Positions 1 through 11,394 of a stretch of 64,000 nucleotides of DNA are shown in pieces. This DNA is from Escherichia coli. GTDB lineage: Bacteria; Pseudomonadota; Gammaproteobacteria; Enterobacterales; Enterobacteriaceae. The translations under genes were made by a program, and so were the position numbers. The stretch's first letter is position 1, and every line of letters starts with the position of its first letter. The notes under the pieces were generated by a model. That model saw only the letters and a program-made list of their open reading frames with translations, ran no database searches and was not told the DNA's origin. Location: NCBI RefSeq assembly GCF_965641715.1, contig NZ_OZ282453.1; one strand, given 5' to 3'.

Positions 1-1
1 C

Positions 2-115
2 TTTTGCCGAGAAGATGGCACGACTGACGGCGCAGCTGAAAGATCAGCTGGAAGAGAGCGCGAAGCTGGAAGCACAGATTAAGGCGAATCTGGGGGGGCT
101 GGGTTATGAGTTCTA
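2..115 (+). CDS. hsdM: Type I R-M methyltransferase subunit HsdM, C-terminal fragment (gene starts upstream of window)
   Basis: Open frame from window edge ending ...KLEAQIKANLGGLGYEF*, a typical HsdM C-terminus; stop overlaps the hsdS start (ATGAGTTCTAA). Confidence 0.7.
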
Positions 116-1461
116 AGTTTCGGAAAGTAAAACTATGTGAAATCCTCTCATTTAAGACAGGTAAACTCGACTCGAATGCAGCAGTAGATAATGGTTGTTA
201 TCCTTTTTTTACTTGCTCGCCAGTTACACTTTCGATTAATACGCATGCTTTTGACACTGAAGCAGTATTATTAGCTGGTAATAACGCAAATGGGGTATTT
301 TCAGTAAAATACCACAATGGTAAGTTTAATGCTTACCAAAGAACATATGTTATTACTCCTCTGGATAATTCAGCGGTCAATGTGAAATGGCTTTATTTTA
401 GAATAAAATATGTTACGTCAGAATTACAATCAATGTCAGTTGGCACTGCAACAAAATTCTTAACAAAAAAGATTTTGGATTCATTTGAGATTGAACTGCC
501 AACTTTTGAAGAGCAAACATATCAAGCTCAGATTTTATGGGCGTTACAGGATAAATTAGCTAATAATGAAGCTATAAACCAAACTCTCGAACAAATGGCG
601 CAAGCCCTGTTCAAAAGCTGGTTTGTCGATTTTGAACCGGTAAAAGCCAAAATGGCAGCGTTGGAAGCGGGCGGTTCGCAGGAAGACGCGACACGTGCCG
701 CCATGACGGCAATTTCCGGGAAAGATGCTGATGCGTTGGTGGTTTTTGCGCGTGAACATCCTGAGCAATATGCCGAGTTAAAAGCCACGGCAGAACTGTT
801 TCCGTCTGCGGTGCAGGAAAGTGAGTTGGGGGCGATTCCTAAAGGATGGGGGGTGGCGTCAATTAGTGAGATGGGGAAGATTACTTGTGGCAAAACTCCG
901 TCAAAAAAAGAACCAAAGTATTACGGTGGTGATGTTCCATTCATAAAGATACCAGATATGCATGGGCAACTCTTTGTGCTTAAAACTAATGAATATTTAA
1001 GCGAAGTCGGTTCAAAGTCGCAACTAAAAAAACTTGTGCCCGCTAACTCTATCTGTGTTAGTTGTATAGCTACTATTGGTGTTGTTTCTATCACCAATGA
1101 ACCATCTCATACCAATCAGCAAATAAATTCGGTTACACCTTATAAGAGTTCATTACTTTATTATCTTTATTTTTGTATATTGGGATTGAAAGATCATCTT
1201 CACGTTTTAGGTAGCGCAGGTAGTGCAACCTTAAATGTCAATACGTCTACTTTCTCAGGAATTAAAATCGCTCAGCCTGATGCTAAAGTATTGGAGTTAT
1301 TTCATGCCAAATGTACACAATTATTTAATGAGATTAAATCGCTCTGTGTACAAACTGAATCACTTGCACAACTACGAGACACCCTCCTCCCCAAACTCCT
1401 CTCCGGAGAAATTACGTTACCGGATGCCGAGGAAATAGCCAAGGAAGCTGACTATGTTTAA
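106..1461 (+). CDS. hsdS: Type I R-M specificity subunit HsdS
   Basis: 451 aa; two AT-rich variable target-recognition regions flank a conserved central block (LEQMAQALFKSWFVDFEP) and C-terminal block (LRDTLLPKLLSGEI); start coupled to the hsdM stop. Confidence 0.9.
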   Translation: MSSKFRKVKLCEILSFKTGKLDSNAAVDNGCYPFFTCSPVTLSINTHAFDTEAVLLAGNNANGVFSVKYHNGKFNAYQRTYVITPLDNSAVNVKWLYFRIKYVTSELQSMSVGTATKFLTKKILDSFEIELPTFEEQTYQAQILWALQDKLANNEAINQTLEQMAQALFKSWFVDFEPVKAKMAALEAGGSQEDATRAAMTAISGKDADALVVFAREHPEQYAELKATAELFPSAVQESELGAIPKGWGVASISEMGKITCGKTPSKKEPKYYGGDVPFIKIPDMHGQLFVLKTNEYLSEVGSKSQLKKLVPANSICVSCIATIGVVSITNEPSHTNQQINSVTPYKSSLLYYLYFCILGLKDHLHVLGSAGSATLNVNTSTFSGIKIAQPDAKVLELFHAKCTQLFNEIKSLCVQTESLAQLRDTLLPKLLSGEITLPDAEEIAKEADYV

Positions 1462-2647
1462 AGTCGATCAGCCCAGTAATAGCCTGCAACCGCTTCAGGA
1501 AACCACCTTCACTAACGCGGGTTTCACCGAGCGCTACCACTTACAGGAGTGGCTGGCAAAGCATCCGCAAGCATTGACTCGCAACAGCGATGACGAACTA
1601 CTTATCATCCAGAAAGAGTTTGCCGGGTTTGACGACACCAAAGAGCGGTTAGATCTGCTGGCGATCGACAAAGACGGCAATCTGGTGATCATCGAGAACA
1701 AGCTCGATGATTCCGGGCGTGATGTCGTATGGCAGGCGCTGAAGTACGCGGGCTACTGCGCGAATCTACGCAAAGAACATATTGTTGAGATCTTCCAGCG
1801 TTACCTCGATCAGAACGATCCAGAAGAAACACGCCCAGCCTCTGATGTGCTCGCAGAATTCCTCGAACATGAAAGCCTGGATGAAGTGCAAATTAACCAA
1901 AGCCGTTCCCAGCGTGTGATGATGGTTGCGGCAAATTTCCGCAAGGAAGTTACCAATACTGCGCTCTGGCTGATGCAGTTCAACATCCGTGTCCAATGCT
2001 TTAAGGTCACGCCTTACCGTTATGGAAATGATGTATTCATCGACATCCGCCAGGTTATTCCCACACCGGAAGCCGAATCCTACATGATCGGTATGGCGCA
2101 GAAGGAAGCAGAAGAACAATCAACCAGCGGTGAACTGAAACAGAGCCAACGCCTGCGCAAGGCGTTCTGGACGCAGATGCTGGAGAAATTTCATGCCAGC
2201 GACTGTACGCTGTATAACAACATCAGCCCGTCTATGGATCACTGGTTATGTGCAGGCTCTGGCATAAGTGGTATGCCTTATAGCCTAATATTCAGCAAGA
2301 AGGAAATCCGCGTAGAATTATGGATTTCGCGAGCATCGGCAGACATCAACACCATGGCGTTGAACTGGCTTGAACAACACCGCACATCTGTCGAAGAGGT
2401 ATTCGGCAACCCACTGGAGTGGCTATCGCTACCTGGTAAAAAAGCCTGCCGTATTCAATACCGCCAAAAAATAGATGGCTTCCAGCAGGAAAATTGGCCG
2501 CAAATGATCGACTGGCTGGTGGAACATATGACCCGTTTTGAGAATGCGCTTTCGCCGTATCTGCCACAGCTTAACCAGTTGATCAAGCAGACCTTTAACG
2601 GGCATGATGAAGCTGAAAATACAACAGAAGAAGCCGAACACGTATAA
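1454..2647 (+). CDS. Hypothetical protein embedded between hsdS and hsdR; N-terminal PD-(D/E)XK-like nuclease motif
   Basis: 397 aa; ATG overlaps the hsdS stop by 8 nt with an AAGGAAG RBS; motif ERLDLLAIDKDGNLVIIENK resembles the D...ExK core of Hjc/NucS/RecB-type nucleases; no P-loop. Confidence 0.6.
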   Translation: MFKVDQPSNSLQPLQETTFTNAGFTERYHLQEWLAKHPQALTRNSDDELLIIQKEFAGFDDTKERLDLLAIDKDGNLVIIENKLDDSGRDVVWQALKYAGYCANLRKEHIVEIFQRYLDQNDPEETRPASDVLAEFLEHESLDEVQINQSRSQRVMMVAANFRKEVTNTALWLMQFNIRVQCFKVTPYRYGNDVFIDIRQVIPTPEAESYMIGMAQKEAEEQSTSGELKQSQRLRKAFWTQMLEKFHASDCTLYNNISPSMDHWLCAGSGISGMPYSLIFSKKEIRVELWISRASADINTMALNWLEQHRTSVEEVFGNPLEWLSLPGKKACRIQYRQKIDGFQQENWPQMIDWLVEHMTRFENALSPYLPQLNQLIKQTFNGHDEAENTTEEAEHV

Positions 2648-2662
2648 CACAGGACGTTACCG

Positions 2663-5600
2663 ATGCTTACCGAAGACGACTTAGAACAGCTTTGCCAGGG
2701 CTGGTTTGCCGAACAAGGTTGGGAAATCCATCATGGGCCAGATATTGCCCCCGATGGCTGTAACCCGCAACGCGCCAGCTATCATGATGTATTCCTGACG
2801 CCCGTGTTGAACGCCTGCCTGCAAAAAATCAACCCGCACCTGCCCACTGACGTCTTCGAACAGGTCATCTCCCGTATTACTCGCGCTGAAAGCCCGGATC
2901 TGATTGCCAGTAACAAAGCCTTTCATCACTGGTTGCTGGAAGGGGTTCCGGTACAGTACCGTCGCGACGAAGAACTTATCCACGACCACGCCCTGCTGGT
3001 GGATTTTAGCCAGCCGCAAAACAACCGTTTTATGGTGGTCAATCAAATGACTATCAGCGGAACGAAACAGCCTCGCCGCCCGGATATCATCTGCTTTATT
3101 AACGGAATACCACTGGCGGTTGTGGAACTAAAAAGCCCTGTCGATGACAAGGTAGATATCTGGGATGCGTACCACCAGTTACAGACCTATAAAGATGAAA
3201 TACGCGACCTGTTTATCAGCAATGAAGCGTTGATTGTCAGTGATGGTTATCTGGCGCGTGTGGGGTCCCTGACCGCCACGGAAGAACGTTTTATGCCGTG
3301 GAAGACCATCAGCAATGAAAATGACAAGCCGTTGCTGGAATGGCAACTGGAAACTATGGTACGGGGTTTCTTCAACCGGGAATTGCTGCTCGACTATATC
3401 CGCTATTTCGTTCTGTTTGAAAATAACGATGAAAGGCTAATTAAGAAAATAGCTGGTTATCACCAGTTCCACGCGGTGCGTGAGGCCGTGCAGGCGACGA
3501 TCGTTGCTTCGACCGGTAAGCAACTGGTACTGCACAGTAATATTCAGCCAGGCAGTAAGAAAGCAGGCGTGGTCTGGCATACGCAGGGTTCCGGTAAAAG
3601 CATCTCCATGTGTTGCTATGTCGGCAAACTGTTGCAACAGCCGGAGATGGGCAACCCGACGATTGTTGTTGTGACCGATCGTAACGATCTGGACGGCCAG
3701 CTTTATGGTACATTCTGCCAGGCACAGGAGCTGCTCAAGCAAATGCCGGTACAGGCAGATGATCGTGAAACATTGCGTGATCTGCTTGCAACTCGCGATG
3801 CTGGCGGCATTATCTTTACCACCGTGCAGAAATTCTCCCCGGAAGAAGGGGAAAACGCCCATCCGATTCTCAATGGACGCAGCAATATCGTTGTTATTTC
3901 CGATGAAGCGCACCGCAGCCAGTACGGCATGAAAGCCAACCTGGATCGTAAAACCGGCGTCTATAAATACGGTTACGCTAAACATATGCGCGACGCGCTA
4001 CCTAACGCCTCGTTTCTGGGATTTACCGGTACACCGGTTTCGGCAGAGGATCGCGATACTCGCGCTGTATTTGGCGATTACGTCTCAATTTATGATATTC
4101 AGGACGCTGTGGACGATGGCGCAACGGTGCCTATTCACTATGAATCCCGGCTGGCAAAACTCGATCTCAATCATGAAGAGCTGGCGGCGCTGTCCGATCA
4201 GGTTGAAGAACTGATTGAGGACGATGAGCTGGATCAGAGAGAAAAAACCAAAGGTGAATGGAGCCGTCTGGAGAAACTAGTTGGTGCTAAACCACGTCTT
4301 CAGCAGATCGCTGCCGATCTGATTTCTCACTTTGAGAAGCGCAATACCGTAATGGACGGCAAGGCGATGATTGTCGCCATGAGCCGTGAAATCTGCGTCC
4401 ATCTTTACGATGAAATTATTGCGTTGCGTCCGGAGTGGCACGATGACGATCCTGAAAAAGGGCAAATCAAAATCGTGATGACCGGTACAGCATCTGATAA
4501 GGCAATGCTGCAACCGCATATCTACAACAAACGGACTAAAAAACGGCTGGAATCCCGCTTCAAGAATGTGAACGACCCGCTGAAGCTGGTGATAGTGCGT
4601 GATATGTGGCTGACCGGCTTTGATGCCCCATGCTGTCACACTATGTATATCGACAAACCGATGCGCGGCCATAACCTGATGCAGGCTATTGCCCGTGTCA
4701 ACCGGGTATTCAAAGACAAGCCCGGCGGGCTGGTGGTGGATTATATTGGTATCGCCAATGAGCTGAAACTGGCGCTGAAAACTTATACCGATGCAAACGG
4801 TAAAGGTGATGCGACCGTCAACGCTGAAGAAGCACTGGCAATCATGCTGGAAAAGCTGGACATCATCCACGGTATGTTTGCCAAAACGGCAACGTCAGCG
4901 GGTTTTGATTACACCGGCTTTGAAGCTCATGCGCAGAAGTTGCTAGTACCAGTTGCAAACTATGTGCTCGGCCTTGAAGACGGTAAGAAGCGTTTTCTCG
5001 ATAACGTACTGGCAATTACTAAAGCCTGGTCGCTTTGCTGTACGCTGGATGCGGCGCAGCCTTATAAACTAGAGATTGCTTTCTTGTCGGCGGTAAAAGC
5101 TGCTATCAGCAAATTCACCAGTGTGGACAAAAAAATAAGCCAGGCTGAGAAGAACTCCGCGCTGAAACAGATTCTGGATAATGCCGTAATTGCTAACGGC
5201 GTGGATGATATTTTCACGCTGGCTGGTCTGGATAAACCGAATATTGGCTTGCTTTCAGATGAATTCTTGCAGGAAGTCCGCGATATGCCATATCGAAATC
5301 TGGCGGTAGAGCTGCTGGAAAAACTGATTAATGACGGTATCCAGTCCCGTACAAAAAACAATGTAGTGCAGGAGAGGAAATATTCAGAACGTCTTCAGGC
5401 TGTATTGATTAAATACAACAACCGGGCTATTGAGACGGCGCAGGTGATTGAAGAGCTGATCCAGATGGCGAAGGATTTTCAGTCTGCAATGGCGCGTGAT
5501 GATGCGCTTGGCCTGAATCCTGACGAGATCGCTTTCTACGATGCACTGGCAGAAAACGAAAGCGCCGTCCGGGAGTTAGGAGATGAGGTACTTAAGAAAC

Positions 5601-5797
5601 TGGCGATAGAAGTGACGCTGAAGCTGCGCCAATCCACTACCGTTGACTGGCAGGTACGGGAAAGCGTTCGTGCAAGGCTGCGTATCCTGGTTCGCCAGAC
5701 TCTGCGTCGGTATAAGTATCCGCCAGATAAAACGCCGGGTGCGGTGGAGTTAATTTTGAAACAAGCGGAAGTTATTTCGAATCATTGGACGATGTGA
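2663..5797 (+). CDS. hsdR: Type I R-M restriction subunit HsdR
   Basis: 1044 aa; N-terminal nuclease motif ([18 protein letters not shown]), helicase motif I ([11 protein letters not shown]), DEAH box ([12 protein letters not shown]), motif III (GFTGTP). Confidence 0.92.
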
Positions 5798-5803
5798 ATT
5801 TTA

Positions 5804-5833
5804 GGCTGGCTGTATCAACTGCCAGCCATATTT
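5804..5833 (+). terminator. Hairpin downstream of hsdR (GGCTGGC-N10-GCCAGCC followed by ATATTT)
   Basis: Perfect 7-bp inverted repeat read directly from sequence, 7 nt after the hsdR stop; T-tract is weak. Confidence 0.45.
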
Positions 5834-5861
5834 AAATTATCATCAGTTAAAAGGCACAATT

Positions 5862-7604
5862 GTGAGTAAATATAGCGAAATACAACGTCAATTAGATGAA
5901 GTAAGCCCAATACCGAAAGGTATTCCTAAAGTATACCTTTTAGGGGACACTGGAGCAGGAAAGACGACTTTTATTCGAAAAATATTAGGAACTGAAAATA
6001 CCAAATTCCCTACCACCAGACAAAGTAGAACAACCGTTGCACCAACTGAGTATGTAATATGTAAATCATCCAATTATGAATTAACGATTCTGTTAAAATC
6101 TTTTGATGAGATTAATGGATATGTCAGAGAAATTCTAAAAGAAGCATTAGAGAAATCATTGAAAGGTGAAGATGTTAAAAGAAGCTTACGTCAAACAAAT
6201 GATCAGCGGTTTCGTTTATACTATCTTCTTGACGTCAGTGATATTGCAAATTTTGCTGAAGAAGTTATCTCTCTTACACCTCTTCTTTCCGAAAAAATTG
6301 ACGAATTAAAAGAAATTTTTACCGATGATATAACGGATCAAGATGAGTATATTAGTTTTGCTATTGATGAATTAAATGATAAAGTTGAATGTATCCAAAA
6401 TAAGATTATGGACTCCATTCAGAGTAATGTAATGTCCATTTGTAATGGAAGTATGTTAAGTAATGAATCACAGATATTTAAATACATTTCAACCGAAAAA
6501 GAAGACTTTATCAAAAAATGTAAAAAAATATTATCAAGTGATAAAGAGTCTATATCACCTGTTGTCGAGTATGCGAGACTGAGTGGAGAACTCAAATCAG
6601 AATGGGTGAATAGTTGTGCAGAAATAGTTATTATTGATGGTGAAGGTATTGGGCATAATACAAAAGAAACGGCACAACTAGACTCCAGGCATTATGATTT
6701 CTTTTATGATGTTAACTCAATCTTGCTTATCGAAGAGTCAAAAAAACCTTTTATTGCTGGGGGCAAAAATGCATTAAAAAGTATTTTTCAGCGTGGATAT
6801 GGTGATAAATTAAAACTAATCTTCACTAAGCTGGATGAAGTTATACCTTATGATTCAGACGAATCAACAGATGAAGATAGAATTGATTATGTAAAAGATG
6901 GTCTCAATAATGTTCTGGATGCATTAAAAAAAGAAGAGGTGAAGTGTAACATTGATATCGAGGATATTTATTTCATCGGAGATCTTGATAAACCTGAGCA
7001 TAACGCAAGACTTGAATTGGCTTTTAATTCCATATATGAAAACACAGTTTCCATGATAAATAATGATGAGGTTTTCATTGAGCCTAAGTATGACTTTGAG
7101 TTATTGGCCTTGCATATAAATTCTACTTCTAATGATTTTAAAACATACTATAGAAAATTATTAGATAGAGAACATTGGAAAACAATAGAAGCATTTAATC
7201 GACGGATGTATTCAAATATAGATGGGTTTAGGATGTTTATGCCTATTACCGATTTTGAGGAAACTGTGAGTAAATATATTGGTGGTTTTTTGACCTCGCC
7301 AATGGATTGGAAATATGAAGCGGTTGATAACTTGAAGCAAAAAAGTATTAATAAAATCAAGAGGGAATTCAACAAGCTTATTCTTAGCTTTATTCGCAAT
7401 AAGTTAATTATGGAACCATATGAAAAATGGAAAGAATCCTATTTCTTAGCTGGCACTGGTTCAACGATTAGTAGAAAACGTGAGATAACTACTATTTTTA
7501 GTGACACAATTATTGATGCCTCCCAAACTGAACGCTTTAAGGTGTTCAAGGATCAAATTAAAGAGATTGTTGTCAAGTCAATAGAGAACTGTAAGTCAAT
7601 ATAA
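5862..7604 (+). CDS. AT-rich P-loop NTPase of unknown function (GTPase-like or ABC-like)
   Basis: 580 aa, GTG start with AAAGG RBS; Walker A/G1 GDTGAGKTT (aa 28-36); far downstream VIIDGEG (DxxG or Walker B-like) and FTKLD ([N/T]KxD-like); LSGE ~15 aa before VIIDGEG could be an ABC signature; GC roughly one third by eye. Confidence 0.6.
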   Translation: MSKYSEIQRQLDEVSPIPKGIPKVYLLGDTGAGKTTFIRKILGTENTKFPTTRQSRTTVAPTEYVICKSSNYELTILLKSFDEINGYVREILKEALEKSLKGEDVKRSLRQTNDQRFRLYYLLDVSDIANFAEEVISLTPLLSEKIDELKEIFTDDITDQDEYISFAIDELNDKVECIQNKIMDSIQSNVMSICNGSMLSNESQIFKYISTEKEDFIKKCKKILSSDKESISPVVEYARLSGELKSEWVNSCAEIVIIDGEGIGHNTKETAQLDSRHYDFFYDVNSILLIEESKKPFIAGGKNALKSIFQRGYGDKLKLIFTKLDEVIPYDSDESTDEDRIDYVKDGLNNVLDALKKEEVKCNIDIEDIYFIGDLDKPEHNARLELAFNSIYENTVSMINNDEVFIEPKYDFELLALHINSTSNDFKTYYRKLLDREHWKTIEAFNRRMYSNIDGFRMFMPITDFEETVSKYIGGFLTSPMDWKYEAVDNLKQKSINKIKREFNKLILSFIRNKLIMEPYEKWKESYFLAGTGSTISRKREITTIFSDTIIDASQTERFKVFKDQIKEIVVKSIENCKSI

Positions 7605-7615
7605 TAAGATAGAAC

Positions 7616-7638
7616 AGTCCCGGATAATATTCGGGACT
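7616..7638 (+). other. Hairpin after NTPase gene (AGTCCCG-N9-CGGGACT)
   Basis: Perfect 7-bp stem 12 nt after the stop codon; no U-tract, so may be an RNA-stability or processing element rather than a terminator. Confidence 0.35.
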
Positions 7639-7706
7639 CATACACTTACAGATGGAGCTATGAATTTAGCAGTAAGAGTATTTGTGATTATTTAAGGAAA
7701 GTAACA

Positions 7707-8672
7707 ATGCCTTTAGATTTAAGTAACACTTTAGTTATTGGCATTAGCGCGACTGCGCTTTTTGACATGAGCGAATCCGACCATATGTTTCGGGAAACCT
7801 TTGCGACTGATCCTGATAGCGCCATTGAAAAATACCGCGCTTATATGCTAGAACACGAAAACCAACCTTTACAGCCCGGAACAGGCTACCCCTTAGTCAA
7901 AGCGTTGCTGGGTCTGAACCAGTACCGTCAACCGGATGATAAATCGCCGTTGGTTGAGGTTGTTGTGATGTCACGTAACAGCCCTGATACAGGTATCCGC
8001 GTTCTCAATACCATTCGCCATGACAAACTCGATATTACACGTTCAGCTTTTACCGCAGGCGAAACCGTTGCCGATTACCTTGATGCCTTTGATGTGGATC
8101 TGTTTTTAACGACCAACGTTGAAGATGCGCAAAAGGTGATTGATTCCCGATTCTGCGCCGCTGCAATCCTGAAAGATCCACCTTCTGACGCATCTGATAT
8201 CCCAGAAGGGCAAGTGCGCATTGCTTTTGATGGCGACGCGGTACTTTTTTCCGATCAAAGCGAACTGGTTTATAAGACCCAAGGAATGGCTGCCTTCCAT
8301 GCTCAGGAAGACGCGCAGCAGGATATCCCTATGGAAGAGGGGCCTTATGCCACTTTGCTAAAAAAAATAGCCAAGCTTCAGGAACGATTGCCGACCCGCG
8401 TTGAGTATTCTCCTGTTCGTATTGCGCTGGTGACAGCCCGAAATAGCCCTTCGGAAATGCGCGTTATTAAAACGCTAAGAAGCTGGGGGGTATATGTCGA
8501 TGAAGCTTTTTTTCTTGGCGGTGTAGAGAAAACAAAAGTTCTGAAGGCGTTTAGGCCACACATTTTCTTTGACGATCAGGATGTGCATTTGATCGCGGCT
8601 GCAAAGGTAGTACCTTCTGGTAAAGTACCTTATGCCAGTAACTCCGAACTTGCAGAACGTGAAGCATCGTGA
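7707..8672 (+). CDS. HAD-superfamily phosphatase, cytosolic 5'-nucleotidase-like
   Basis: 321 aa; RBS AAGGAAAG; C-terminal half carries HAD-like motifs I (IAFDGDAVLF), II (IALVTARN), a conserved Lys and IV (HIFFDDQDVH); N-terminal ~170 aa is a separate domain. Assignment is from motifs, not a search. Confidence 0.55.
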   Translation: MPLDLSNTLVIGISATALFDMSESDHMFRETFATDPDSAIEKYRAYMLEHENQPLQPGTGYPLVKALLGLNQYRQPDDKSPLVEVVVMSRNSPDTGIRVLNTIRHDKLDITRSAFTAGETVADYLDAFDVDLFLTTNVEDAQKVIDSRFCAAAILKDPPSDASDIPEGQVRIAFDGDAVLFSDQSELVYKTQGMAAFHAQEDAQQDIPMEEGPYATLLKKIAKLQERLPTRVEYSPVRIALVTARNSPSEMRVIKTLRSWGVYVDEAFFLGGVEKTKVLKAFRPHIFFDDQDVHLIAAAKVVPSGKVPYASNSELAEREAS

Positions 8673-8680
8673 TTATCGCT

Positions 8681-8715
8681 GACAAACCATTTAGTCATTA
8701 AGACTGAATGGTTTG
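8681..8715. other. Hairpin between convergent genes (ACAAACCATT-N15-AATGGTTTGT)
   Basis: Perfect 10-bp inverted repeat in the 77-bp gap between the nucleotidase-like gene and the HNH gene; possible bidirectional terminator. Confidence 0.4.
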
Positions 8716-8749
8716 TATGCCACTCGCAAAATATCTGCCCTACCTCAAA

Positions 8750-9625
8750 TCAATGCTCTCCTCTGAACACCTCTTTTCTGTGCCATTCCACAAACTGCTC
8801 GCCCGGATAATTTTCTTTAACCGGTGGCAACGCAATCGCCTTTCCCGCAAAATCCCAGAACAGTCGCTGTACCACTCCACCACCATTTACCGCGCCGGAA
8901 ACCACCACACGCATATTTTCATCCAAGCCAATCGAACCGCGATCAAACGCTTTATGATGGATTGCGCACAATGCCAGGCCATTAGGTACTTCACAAGGGC
9001 CATGGTGCTGCTTCCATCTGATATGAGCAGCTTCCAGAGCAATTGGCGCATTGTCGTGGCGCATGTTGAAGCCGCAGATCGCACACTGATAATTGTAAGC
9101 ACGTAGCACCATCTGGCGGAACTTCGGATCGCGTTGACGGAGAGAGGTGCGAATATCAAAACCCATCTCGTCAGCTATCTCTTCCTGAATACTGGCCGGG
9201 AAATGCGCCTCCAGGAGCTGCTGCGCCAGCGTATCAATTAACCTGTGATTTTTTGCCACCAACGCAAAATTATCGGCATCAAATCCACCAGCGACATTAT
9301 ATTCAATGAGTTCACGTCGGGGCGGCTGGCGGCTACCACTGGTTGAGCACAGTTGTGCGTTTTGTAGTTCCCAGAAGCCATCGCCCTTCAGACGCCAGAA
9401 CGGCATGTCCGGGCGCTGGTCACGGCGCTGCGGTCCATAACGTTCCAGAAGATCCAACAGGGGCTCGTAGATTTCAGAACCATAGTTAAACAGGCGACCA
9501 TGACCCTGCCGATAGTGTGAGAGGACGTGCAGCAGCAATAATGGCTTATGTGGCGCACGTTGTTCGCCTTTGCGCCAGATGGTGATATTTGATATCGCTT
9601 GCTTTAGGGCTTTGTCAGAGGTCAT
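8750..9625 (-). CDS. HNH endonuclease with N-terminal putative DNA-recognition domain (candidate Type IV restriction enzyme)
   Basis: C-terminal HNH motif YQCAICGF...AAHIRWKQHHGPCEVPNGLALCAIHHKAFDRG (CxxC, H, N, CxxHH); ~190-aa N-terminal domain unidentified. Start set at ATG (MTSDKAL); the track ORF extends to a TTG at 9670. Confidence 0.6.
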   Translation of the reverse strand: MTSDKALKQAISNITIWRKGEQRAPHKPLLLLHVLSHYRQGHGRLFNYGSEIYEPLLDLLERYGPQRRDQRPDMPFWRLKGDGFWELQNAQLCSTSGSRQPPRRELIEYNVAGGFDADNFALVAKNHRLIDTLAQQLLEAHFPASIQEEIADEMGFDIRTSLRQRDPKFRQMVLRAYNYQCAICGFNMRHDNAPIALEAAHIRWKQHHGPCEVPNGLALCAIHHKAFDRGSIGLDENMRVVVSGAVNGGGVVQRLFWDFAGKAIALPPVKENYPGEQFVEWHRKEVFRGEH

Positions 9626-9769
9626 TGCGTTGAAGAATCCATGAGCACATATTTGCGATGATGCTCGCAACTATATGTACATTCAAGGCATTATTGCAGA
9701 CATCCTTTTTGCCTGACTGCTCTGTACCTGGCAGATGAAATTCTGATAACAACGGTAAAAAATACAGCG

Positions 9770-9840: not shown

Positions 9841-11109
9841 TCACTCGCCATTACCCCGATTGATCTTCGCATAGTCAAACGGCGTAATCGCTCTCTCCCG
9901 ATTGGCATCCAGAAAATCAGCCCACCACTGCAACATCAGCTTGCGCTCATCCAGGTGTTCCGCTTTATGGATATACGCCGCCCTCACCGAGCTGCGTTCC
10001 ATATGGCTCATCTGCCTTTCCACCGCATCCTTCGACCATAACCCTGACTCAATCAATGAGCTACAGGCCATTGTGCGGAAGCCGTGGCCGCAAACTTCAA
10101 CCTTAGTGTCATAACCCATCACCCGTAGCGCACTGTTTACCGTGTTCTCGCTCATGGGCTTACGCGGATCGTGATCGCCAATAAAAATCAGCTCATGTTC
10201 GCCACAGAACTGTTTTATCTGCTTCAGGATCGCCAGCGCCTGCTTTGAAAGCGGCACCAGATGCGGTGTACGCATCTTTGAACCTCGCTGAGAATGTTTC
10301 ACACCGGGAATCGGTTCTCGCTCAGGCGGGATGGTCCACATTGACGTTTCAAAATCGATTTCTGACCAGCGAGCAAAACGTAGCTCACTGGATCGAATAA
10401 AGATAAGCAGAGTGAGTTCTGTCGCCCAGCGGGTTAGCGGCCTGCCTGTATAGCTATCTATTTTCTCAAGTAACTCAGGGATACGCTTTAATTCCAGCGC
10501 CGGGCGATGCTGTCGATTGCCAGAGGCGACTGCTCCAGCCATCTCCTGCGCTGGGTTGTAATCAATCAGCCCACTTTGCACTGCATAACGCATAATGGCC
10601 GTGGTACGCTGTTGGAGACGAGAAGCCACCTCAAGACGTCCAGACAGTTCCACCGCTTTAATGGGTGCCAGTAAGTCACGAGTGCCCAATTCGGCAATAT
10701 TGCGAGAACCAATTGCCGGGAAGATATTGTCCTCCAGGCTCTTTTTTACACGATTAGCATGATCTTCTGACCATTTTTGGTTGGTTACGAGCCACTCTCT
10801 GGCAACCTTCTCGAAAGTAATAATCTCTTTCGCCTGCTCTTCTTTCACAGCACGCTTATGCTCACGAGGATCGATACCAGCAGCTACCAGCTTTCTGGCC
10901 TCTTCCCTTTTCTTCCTGGCATCTGCCAGCGAAACATCCGGGTAAACGCCGAACGCCATCAAATGTTGTTTACCGCCAAAACGGAAACGAAATCGCCAAT
11001 ACTTTGAACCGCCAGGTTTTACAAGTAAGGACATGCCATCGCCGTCAACAAGTGAATACTCTTTCTCCTCAGGTTTCGCAGAGCGAACTTTAGTATCCGT
11101 TAGGGCCAT
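9841..11109 (-). CDS. intB: P4-type tyrosine integrase (IntB-like) adjacent to leuX
   Basis: Begins MALTDTKVRSAKP..., ends ...AITPFDYAKINRGNGE; C-terminal catalytic region with R...HxxR...Y pattern; start trimmed from the track ORF (448 aa) to the conserved MALTD start (422 aa). Confidence 0.85.
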   Translation of the reverse strand: MALTDTKVRSAKPEEKEYSLVDGDGMSLLVKPGGSKYWRFRFRFGGKQHLMAFGVYPDVSLADARKKREEARKLVAAGIDPREHKRAVKEEQAKEIITFEKVAREWLVTNQKWSEDHANRVKKSLEDNIFPAIGSRNIAELGTRDLLAPIKAVELSGRLEVASRLQQRTTAIMRYAVQSGLIDYNPAQEMAGAVASGNRQHRPALELKRIPELLEKIDSYTGRPLTRWATELTLLIFIRSSELRFARWSEIDFETSMWTIPPEREPIPGVKHSQRGSKMRTPHLVPLSKQALAILKQIKQFCGEHELIFIGDHDPRKPMSENTVNSALRVMGYDTKVEVCGHGFRTMACSSLIESGLWSKDAVERQMSHMERSSVRAAYIHKAEHLDERKLMLQWWADFLDANRERAITPFDYAKINRGNGE

Positions 11110-11280
11110 AATGGTCTTCCTTCCATTGGTATCTCGTGAGTATACAAGCAATATCGAATCGGCAAATATACTCATTAGTATACTCACAAGCCTGTTGATG
11201 TGGGTTGGTTCAGGTTGACTTCAGTTGAGGAGAAAAGCTGGAAAAGCCTTGCGTGGCGCGGATTTCAGGCATAAAAAAAG

Positions 11281-11309: not shown

Positions 11310-11394
11310 TGGTGCCGAAGGCCGGACTCGAACCGGCACGTATTTCTACGGTTGATTTTGAATCAACTGCGTCTACCGATTTCGCCACTTCGGC
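11310..11394 (-). tRNA. leuX: tRNA-Leu (anticodon CAA)
   Basis: Reverse complement reads GCCGAAGTGGCGAAATCGGTAGACGCAGTTGATTCAAAATCAACCGTAGAAATACGTGCCGGTTCGAGTCCGGCCTTCGGCACCA: cloverleaf with CAA anticodon and CCA end. Confidence 0.95.

Follow-up and report, generated by a model that had tools for sequence, protein, structure and literature searches.

A Type I restriction-modification operon on a leuX island of Escherichia coli with a putative DUF4268 nuclease gene between hsdS and hsdR

The window analysed here is a 64,000-nucleotide stretch of Escherichia coli DNA (RefSeq assembly GCF_965641715.1, contig NZ_OZ282453.1), in which positions 3..5797 almost certainly hold the downstream portion of an operon for Type I restriction-modification. 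The locus is an ordinary operon of this type except for one element, a gene of 397 codons located between the specificity gene (hsdS) and the restriction gene (hsdR), which is called ORF-X (open reading frame X) below and is the most informative part of the operon. From its sequence, we are fairly confident that ORF-X is an active nuclease defence gene. The best overall explanation, which we hold with moderate confidence, is a Type I operon on an island at the tRNA gene leuX with an embedded, MdgA-like nuclease of the Type IV-like class.

The gene order hsdM-hsdS-ORF-hsdR on the + strand, as proposed in the initial annotation, is borne out by the listing of open reading frames and by Pfam and NCBIfam profiles. 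All four frames are present, but the span assigned to them from position 2 needs correction at its left end, where the hsdM frame opens at base 3 and comprises only 38 codons (Table 1). This stretch of frame 3 is free of stops, encodes AQIKANLGGLGYEF and ends in GGLGYEF before its stop codon. Its assignment to hsdM rests on 95.5% nucleotide identity with the 3' end of the annotated hsdM of E. coli 2EC1, and the full-length HsdM proteins of relatives have 569 amino acids with HsdM_N and N6_Mtase domains. HsdS is matched by Pfam Methylase_S in two stretches (E 2.3e-38) and by PADLOC Specificity_I (E 7e-161), and carries two target-recognition domains (TRDs) split by conserved regions, as is characteristic of Type I systems. 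HsdR likewise has the Type I arrangement of an N-terminal PD-(D/E)xK nuclease followed by a superfamily 2 ATP-dependent motor. It matches the HSDR_N, SWI2_SNF2/ResIII, T1R_D3-like and T1RH-like_C profiles (Pfam/NCBIfam), scores 620 bits against TIGR00348 (cut-off 284.55), and retains the nuclease residues D141...E155-x-K157, the Walker A motif GSGKS (309-313) and the DEAH box (414-417).

The reported overlaps between neighbouring genes are also found. The hsdM and hsdS genes overlap by 11 nucleotides (ATGAGTTCTAA, 106..116), and hsdS and ORF-X overlap by 8 nucleotides (ATGTTTAA, 1454..1461) with a Shine-Dalgarno-like AAGGAAG just upstream. These overlaps were read directly from the sequence, hence no chance model was applied; they are identical in the RefSeq annotation of relatives and fit translational coupling, as had been suggested. 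The spacer from ORF-X to hsdR is 15 nucleotides long and contains AGGA. The order does differ from that of EcoKI, as was pointed out, but it is unremarkable, because hsdM-hsdS-hsdR is the Type IC order and an additional gene before hsdR is found in the classical prr locus, hsdM-hsdS-prrC-hsdR (PMC3874165). Nor are the overlaps unusual, since the hsdM and hsdS genes of EcoKI likewise overlap, by 4 nucleotides. A consensus scan for promoters, made with an internal hsdR promoter in view, gave 16 hits versus 18.9 in shuffled sequences, and a terminator scan gave 8 versus 8.9, such that neither yielded signals above chance. A hairpin read directly from the sequence downstream of hsdR (Table 1) is a weakly supported, possible operon terminator; it is absent from the output of the terminator scan, for which the loop limit was 8 nucleotides.

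ORF-X is matched over amino acids 1-379 of 397 by the PADLOC family PDC-S11 (PDLC04913, E 1.1e-177) and at amino acids 234-370 by the Pfam domain DUF4268 (PF14088, 125.8 bits, cut-off 27), along with weak matches to PDDEXK_4 and NucS_C. PDC-S11 is one of 145 untested candidates that were nominated by 'guilt by embedding', the host loci being those of Type I, BREX and DISARM systems (bioRxiv 10.1101/2024.01.29.577857). ORF-X does not differ in kind from PDC-S11, and for an untested candidate the match provides a family name but no function. Among 64 homologues with 27-53% identity, residues E26, D67, K83 and Q94xxxY98 are invariant and E55 and E81 are nearly so. These residues constitute the D...E-x-K...QxxxY signature of RecB/NucS-like nucleases and place ORF-X within the PD-(D/E)xK group. 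The protein is thus predicted to consist of an N-terminal NucS/RecB-like PD-(D/E)xK nuclease fused to a C-terminal DUF4268 domain. A sequence search of the Protein Data Bank returned no match to ORF-X at E<=1, and fold comparison was therefore used; the AlphaFold (AF2) model is confident, with a predicted local distance difference test (pLDDT) value of 93.8. The family is large, comprising 5102 clusters (50% identity) at E<=1e-3 and 458 at E<=1e-30. An origin of ORF-X as a phage gene was considered and rejected, as only 3 weak matches were found among 50,697 phage records.

To place ORF-X in its genomic contexts, 80 species-level homologue loci from many phyla were collected with flanks of up to 8 kb on each side, and HsdM, HsdS and HsdR were searched for with tblastn. 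This locus search used the closer of two alignment sets (A2), the first alignment (A1) being too divergent for pattern design. The M-S-X-R order within the same Type I family is present at 27 of the 80 loci. Another 24 are flanked by genes of other Type I families (23-44% identity), with hsdR after ORF-X in 20 of these and hsdM also before it in 19. No Type I gene was detected in the fetched flanks of the remaining 29 loci, a count to be taken as an upper bound, with both flanks complete in only about 10 of them. Sampled neighbours at these loci include gyrA, rpoC, a major facilitator superfamily transporter and an OLD-family nuclease.

Versions of this Type I family also exist without ORF-X. 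Islands of Salmonella and relatives at the same chromosomal site (loci L084-L089) carry an hsdS whose stop codon overlaps the hsdR start codon as TGATG (…GCCTGATGCTAAGC…, 3790..3815 in L084-L089), and this X-less hsdS/hsdR junction is also present in about 12 complete E. coli genomes. A search of 5426 complete E. coli genomes detected ORF-X itself in 156. ORF-X appears to be an optional, self-contained cassette inserted at the hsdS/hsdR junction with the coupled operon layout kept, because the same Type I family is found without it and because no Type I genes were detected at the 29 loci described above. As a separate observation, several same-family loci of marine Gammaproteobacteria (L012-L019, L025) have an extra 1-2.3 kb between ORF-X and hsdR, so that in some species two or more genes are apparently embedded at the junction.

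In Type I enzymes, a core of two HsdM subunits and one HsdS methylates adenines in a bipartite target, the halves of which are read by TRD1 and TRD2 of HsdS. Two HsdR subunits join this core, drive ATP-dependent translocation from unmethylated targets and cut at a distance. The present enzyme would thus be expected to methylate and restrict a bipartite target that its two TRDs define, and its specificity is altered by swapping AT-rich TRD cassettes. For ORF-X, the likeliest function in our view is that of an MdgA-like DNA endonuclease that works autonomously and depends on DNA modification, in the manner of Type IV enzymes. Such an enzyme would destroy phage DNA that contains hypermodified bases, for example the glucosylated hydroxymethylcytosine of T-even phages or the Mom-modified adenine of Mu. 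Hypermodified DNA escapes Type I restriction, such that the two systems would cover complementary targets.

Published findings on other DUF4268 proteins are consistent with this hypothesis. Fusions of DUF4268 to GmrSD Type IV enzymes are frequent (PMC4619093). Two nucleases with this domain, MdgA and MdgB, defend E. coli against T4 but give no protection against the unmodified T4-GT7. MdgA additionally acts against Mu and occurs in many phyla; when purified, it preferentially degrades T4 DNA, whereas an E77A mutant is dead (all PMC12366544). MdgA is a single-gene DUF4268 nuclease, as is predicted for ORF-X. Its catalytic residue is Glu77, and in the ORF-X family the glutamate of the E-x-K motif is the protein's own residue 77 in 41 of the 64 aligned members. 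In contrast to ORF-X, MdgA came from a metagenomic insert and is not reported as embedded in a Type I operon. Precedent for nesting of this sort is provided by TgvAB of Vibrio cholerae VPI-2, a Type IV system that resides within a Type I operon and is commoner outside Type I clusters (PMC11411939). TgvAB is a two-protein relative of GmrSD (DUF262/DUF1524), whereas ORF-X is a single NucS/RecB-like nuclease protein. ORF-X probably belongs to the MdgA family, and we give about even chances to the more specific proposal that it is both modification-dependent and independent of the Type I complex.

Several considerations weigh against this interpretation. The function of the locus is deduced from sequence and comparison, and since nearly all of hsdM lies outside the window, the system can only be described as intact-looking from its visible genes. 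The link between ORF-X and MdgA is circumstantial, as it consists of a shared domain name, a residue number and a similar distribution rather than a sequence alignment. The count of loci lacking Type I genes derives from single-query tblastn searches (E<=1e-5) with many short flanks. Furthermore, the 8-nucleotide overlap with hsdS and the recurrent location at the hsdS/hsdR junction would equally fit a partnership with the Type I complex. The recurrence of this insertion in several unrelated Type I families, the preserved translational coupling and the co-inheritance with hsdR leave some room for a reading in which ORF-X is functionally connected to the Type I enzyme. Its YbjN/chaperone-like DUF4268 domain might, for instance, bind HsdS or HsdM, and ORF-X could be activated once the complex is blocked or has stalled on modified DNA. 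We regard such a connection as improbable; if true, it would make the locus a hybrid enzyme, with one operon restricting both unmodified and hypermodified DNA.

A different form of dependence on the Type I complex is represented by PrrC, and a PrrC-like guardian function is the main rival explanation. ORF-X would then be silenced by the Type I complex and released as a nuclease by Ocr- or Stp-like anti-restriction proteins, leading to abortive infection. Its location is precisely that of prrC in EcoprrI, the Type IC prr locus of E. coli CT196, in which an accessory defence gene likewise lies between hsdS and hsdR (hsdM-hsdS-prrC-hsdR; PMC3874165, PMC12707154). The close spacing of ORF-X to both neighbours, with the hsdS overlap on one side and only 15 nucleotides on the other, agrees with this idea, as does the presence of flanking Type I genes at 51 of the 80 homologue loci, where hsdR follows ORF-X in 46 of the 51 and hsdM usually precedes it. 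However, the gene embedded in EcoprrI encodes an ABC-ATPase anticodon nuclease that acts on tRNA-Lys under the control of the Type I complex, whereas ORF-X resembles a PD-(D/E)xK DNA nuclease with DUF4268, has no ABC-ATPase domain in profile searches and also occurs apart from Type I genes, unlike PrrC, of which nearly all copies are embedded. We disfavour the guardian explanation, and judge it unlikely, because of the loci without detected Type I genes in their fetched flanks, some of which adjoin housekeeping genes, and because ORF-X homologues associate with several unrelated Type I families, whose low mutual identity (23-44%) argues against a specific protein-protein fit. Operons of the same Type I family that form without ORF-X also speak against it, as do MdgA and MdgB, which protect when cloned alone in E. 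coli.

Some of these data also bear on whether ORF-X is an integral or regulatory Type I component, such as an assembly factor, a restriction-alleviation factor or a second nuclease subunit. Its position in the operon, the overlapping stop and start codons and its co-inheritance with hsdR across the mosaic junction described below would be expected of such a component. However, its presence varies within one Type I family (hsdS directly abuts hsdR in Salmonella), HsdR has its own complete set of PD-(D/E)xK and motor motifs, and the ORF-X family is widespread outside Type I loci; we therefore rate this explanation as very unlikely. Least probable of all is that ORF-X serves in housekeeping DNA repair as a NucS/EndoMS-type nuclease and resides in the operon by chance. 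This is at odds with the patchy occurrence of ORF-X in complete E. coli genomes (156 of 5426), with its location amid defence genes on an integrase-bearing island, and with the embedding of most ORF-X loci in restriction-modification operons. The NucS architecture is also absent, in that the nuclease domain of ORF-X is N-terminal and is followed by DUF4268. We thus retain an autonomous, MdgA-like nuclease as the preferred reading of ORF-X.

The host operon shares with the classical families IA (EcoKI), IB (EcoAI) and IC (EcoR124I) a three-subunit logic, an HsdS with two TRDs and the hsdM/hsdS overlap. By sequence the enzyme lies outside all three, with an HsdR that has a predicted HindI-like C-terminal domain, because identity to EcoKI is low, the EcoAI model scores below its cut-off and the alignment to EcoR124I is partial. 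HsdR matches EcoKI HsdR with 24% identity over 278 amino acids, HsdM of the related E. coli AL.H8 matches EcoKI HsdM with 26% over 288 amino acids, and HsdS reaches 38 bits against the EcoKI-type equivalog (cut-off 662), which speaks against Type IA. Against the EcoAI/FtnUII equivalog, HsdR reaches 29.3 bits (cut-off 550), which speaks against Type IB. EcoR124I is the nearest solved structure, and HsdR aligns with it in two stretches only (E 3.5e-29 for the best chain, about 28% identity by eye). The order of the hsd genes is common to this operon and to Type IC, but the high HsdR identity expected of that family is lacking. The hsdM gene of KpnBI is about 2.6 kb in length versus 1.7 kb here, which argues against Type IE. 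The genomic location differs as well, since EcoKI of strain K-12 occupies the hsd-mcr-mrr region and the present operon the leuX island.

The variable regions of HsdS had been described as AT-rich and as divergent from the conserved core, and both descriptions hold. The two TRD-coding regions have a lower guanine-plus-cytosine (GC) content than the central core (Table 1), whose value of 0.50 is also that of ORF-X and hsdR. Against the locus of E. coli 2EC1, a nucleotide alignment is obtained for the hsdM tail, for the central region 574..849 (91%) and for positions 1368..5801 (97.4%), whereas regions 115..573 and 850..1367 do not match the 2EC1 allele detectably. The central region has 80% nucleotide identity to alleles of C. 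amalonaticus with unrelated TRDs, with which both variable regions are again unalignable. Conserved blocks that alternate with unalignable variable blocks conform to the classical TRD-cassette pattern. Each TRD occurs elsewhere in E. coli. TRD1 is 100% identical in AL.H8 and has 97.6% nucleotide identity in PSS-08-1, where it is paired with another TRD2, while TRD2 has about 92% nucleotide identity in many alleles bearing other versions of TRD1 and 94-97% in AL.H8. Phase variation of hsdS was also considered and was rejected, there being no inverted repeats, spare hsdS copies or simple-sequence tracts.

A sliding comparison points to a mosaic origin of the locus. To the left of approximately position 1350, in the hsdM tail and hsdS, identity to AL.H8 is 95-100%, versus 51-81% to the right, and from 1350/1368 rightwards the hsdS 3' end, ORF-X and hsdR have 97.4-98.5% identity to 2EC1 and C. 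amalonaticus. Because the identity patterns of AL.H8 and 2EC1 are opposite around this position, the locus is a recombinant, with hsdS derived from one lineage and ORF-X plus hsdR from another.

The initial annotation had also proposed a likely novel specificity. As a statement of novelty this does not stand: the HsdS allele is not new as a sequence, because an identical protein is public and relatives with 93-94% identity that share both TRDs are common. The identical 451-amino-acid HsdS is found on 33 public E. coli contigs, on which HsdS, ORF-X, HsdR and a downstream 580-amino-acid protein have consecutive accessions (EFO3601390-393, drafts). Among complete E. coli genomes, the whole hsdS recurs once, in AL.H8 (95.5% nucleotide and 94% protein identity). 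The 90% cluster of HsdS includes Klebsiella pneumoniae proteins on 322, 289, 92 and 48 contigs, complete genomes among them, and one of these proteins has 93% identity across both TRDs. A prediction of the recognition sequence was not forthcoming, as the TRDs exhibit only generic similarity to HsdS of EcoR124I, of the EcoKI type and of M. jannaschii, and literature on E. coli and Klebsiella methylomes yielded nothing linked to this allele.

One could still place the main interest of the locus in an HsdS with a new, uncharacterised recognition sequence. Both TRDs diverge from the alleles of most related E. coli loci, similarity to solved or curated HsdS proteins is weak (E 6.6e-10 for EcoR124 TRD2, in addition to the low EcoKI-type score given above), and HsdS carries only a generic name in every source. 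However, this emphasis is doubtful given the identical protein on public E. coli contigs and the same two TRDs in AL.H8 and in hundreds of K. pneumoniae contigs. A REBASE motif from single-molecule real-time sequencing may already exist for these alleles, and new TRD combinations are routine in Type I systems.

The operon sits on a defence island integrated at the tRNA-Leu(CAA) gene leuX of the E. coli chromosome. This is evident because the tRNA gene is adjoined by an integrase-sized frame (Table 1), because E. coli core genes, idnT, lptFG and pepA among them, match the DNA to the right of tRNA-Leu with 99.1% identity, and because the annotation of E. coli 2EC1 places this operon in an island between nanM and tRNA-Leu/ahr, with an integrase. 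Relatives exhibit the same island layout, and the genes between hsdR and the integrase are likewise defence-like. The exact combination of modules in positions 1..9700 was found in none of 5426 complete E. coli RefSeq genomes at >=80% coverage, and the island is built of interchangeable modules.

Directly after hsdR lies an AT-rich open reading frame for a protein of 580 amino acids, for which profile searches gave no Pfam, NCBIfam or clear PADLOC family. It has about 315 homologues with a constant length of about 583 amino acids in Enterobacterales, Vibrio, Aeromonas and other phyla. Its AF2 model (pLDDT 88) resembles SynDLP, Campylobacter DLP1/2, EHD4 and mitofusin (Foldseek E ~6e-7, low TM), and by this modelled fold it may be an uncharacterised dynamin-like defence GTPase. 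A 5'-nucleotidase gene follows the dynamin-like frame in E. coli and in 5 of 6 Salmonella-type islands examined, and the two genes possibly form a two-gene unit. The next gene encodes a restriction endonuclease for phosphorothioated DNA. In the portion of the island covered here, no dnd or ssp modification genes were found. The TTG start of this frame at 9670 is probably too far upstream, as relatives are annotated with 291-292 amino acids.

Table 1. Positions of operon and island features in the 64,000-nucleotide window.
Feature	Position	Strand	Remarks
hsdM 3' end, last 38 codons	3..116	+	gene runs past the left edge of the window; stop TAA at 114..116
hsdS, specificity subunit, 451 amino acids	106..1461	+	Methylase_S x2, Specificity_I
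TRD1-coding variable region, amino acids ~4-156	115..573	+	GC 0.34
Central conserved region of hsdS	574..849	+	GC 0.50
TRD2-coding variable region, amino acids ~249-421	850..1367	+	GC 0.375
Recombination (mosaic) junction, conserved hsdS 3' end	1350..1368	+	identity shift
ORF-X, putative accessory nuclease gene, 397 amino acids	1454..2647	+	DUF4268, PADLOC PDC-S11
hsdR, restriction/translocase subunit, 1044 amino acids	2663..5797	+	domain profiles and motifs
GC-rich hairpin GGCTGGC-10 nt-GCCAGCC, then A/T-rich run	5804..5827	+	7 nucleotides past hsdR stop; direct reading
P-loop open reading frame, 580 amino acids	5862..7604	+	directly after hsdR; AT-rich, GC 0.32; GDTGAGKT
5'-nucleotidase	7707..8672	+	PF06189; PADLOC PDC-S08, E 5e-134
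Phosphorothioated-DNA-binding restriction endonuclease, ScoMcrA-like SBD + HNH	8750..~9628	-	NF045808, 443 bits
Tyrosine integrase-sized open reading frame	9841..11187	-	adjoins tRNA-Leu
tRNA-Leu(CAA) (leuX)	11310..11394	-	right end of island

Current understanding of these systems is unchanged by this locus. Its sequences were in public databases beforehand, and the family of the embedded gene had been catalogued. In practical terms, the locus represents one more barrier to transformation and phages, carried by about 1-3% of complete E. coli genomes and by many Klebsiella, and knowledge of the HsdS motif would help in strain engineering and in phage-therapy matching. It also provides a clean natural example of 'defence within defence' in which X-containing and X-less operons can be compared, and is thus a convenient place to ask whether the DUF4268/PDC-S11 family acts alone as a Type IV system or together with the Type I complex.

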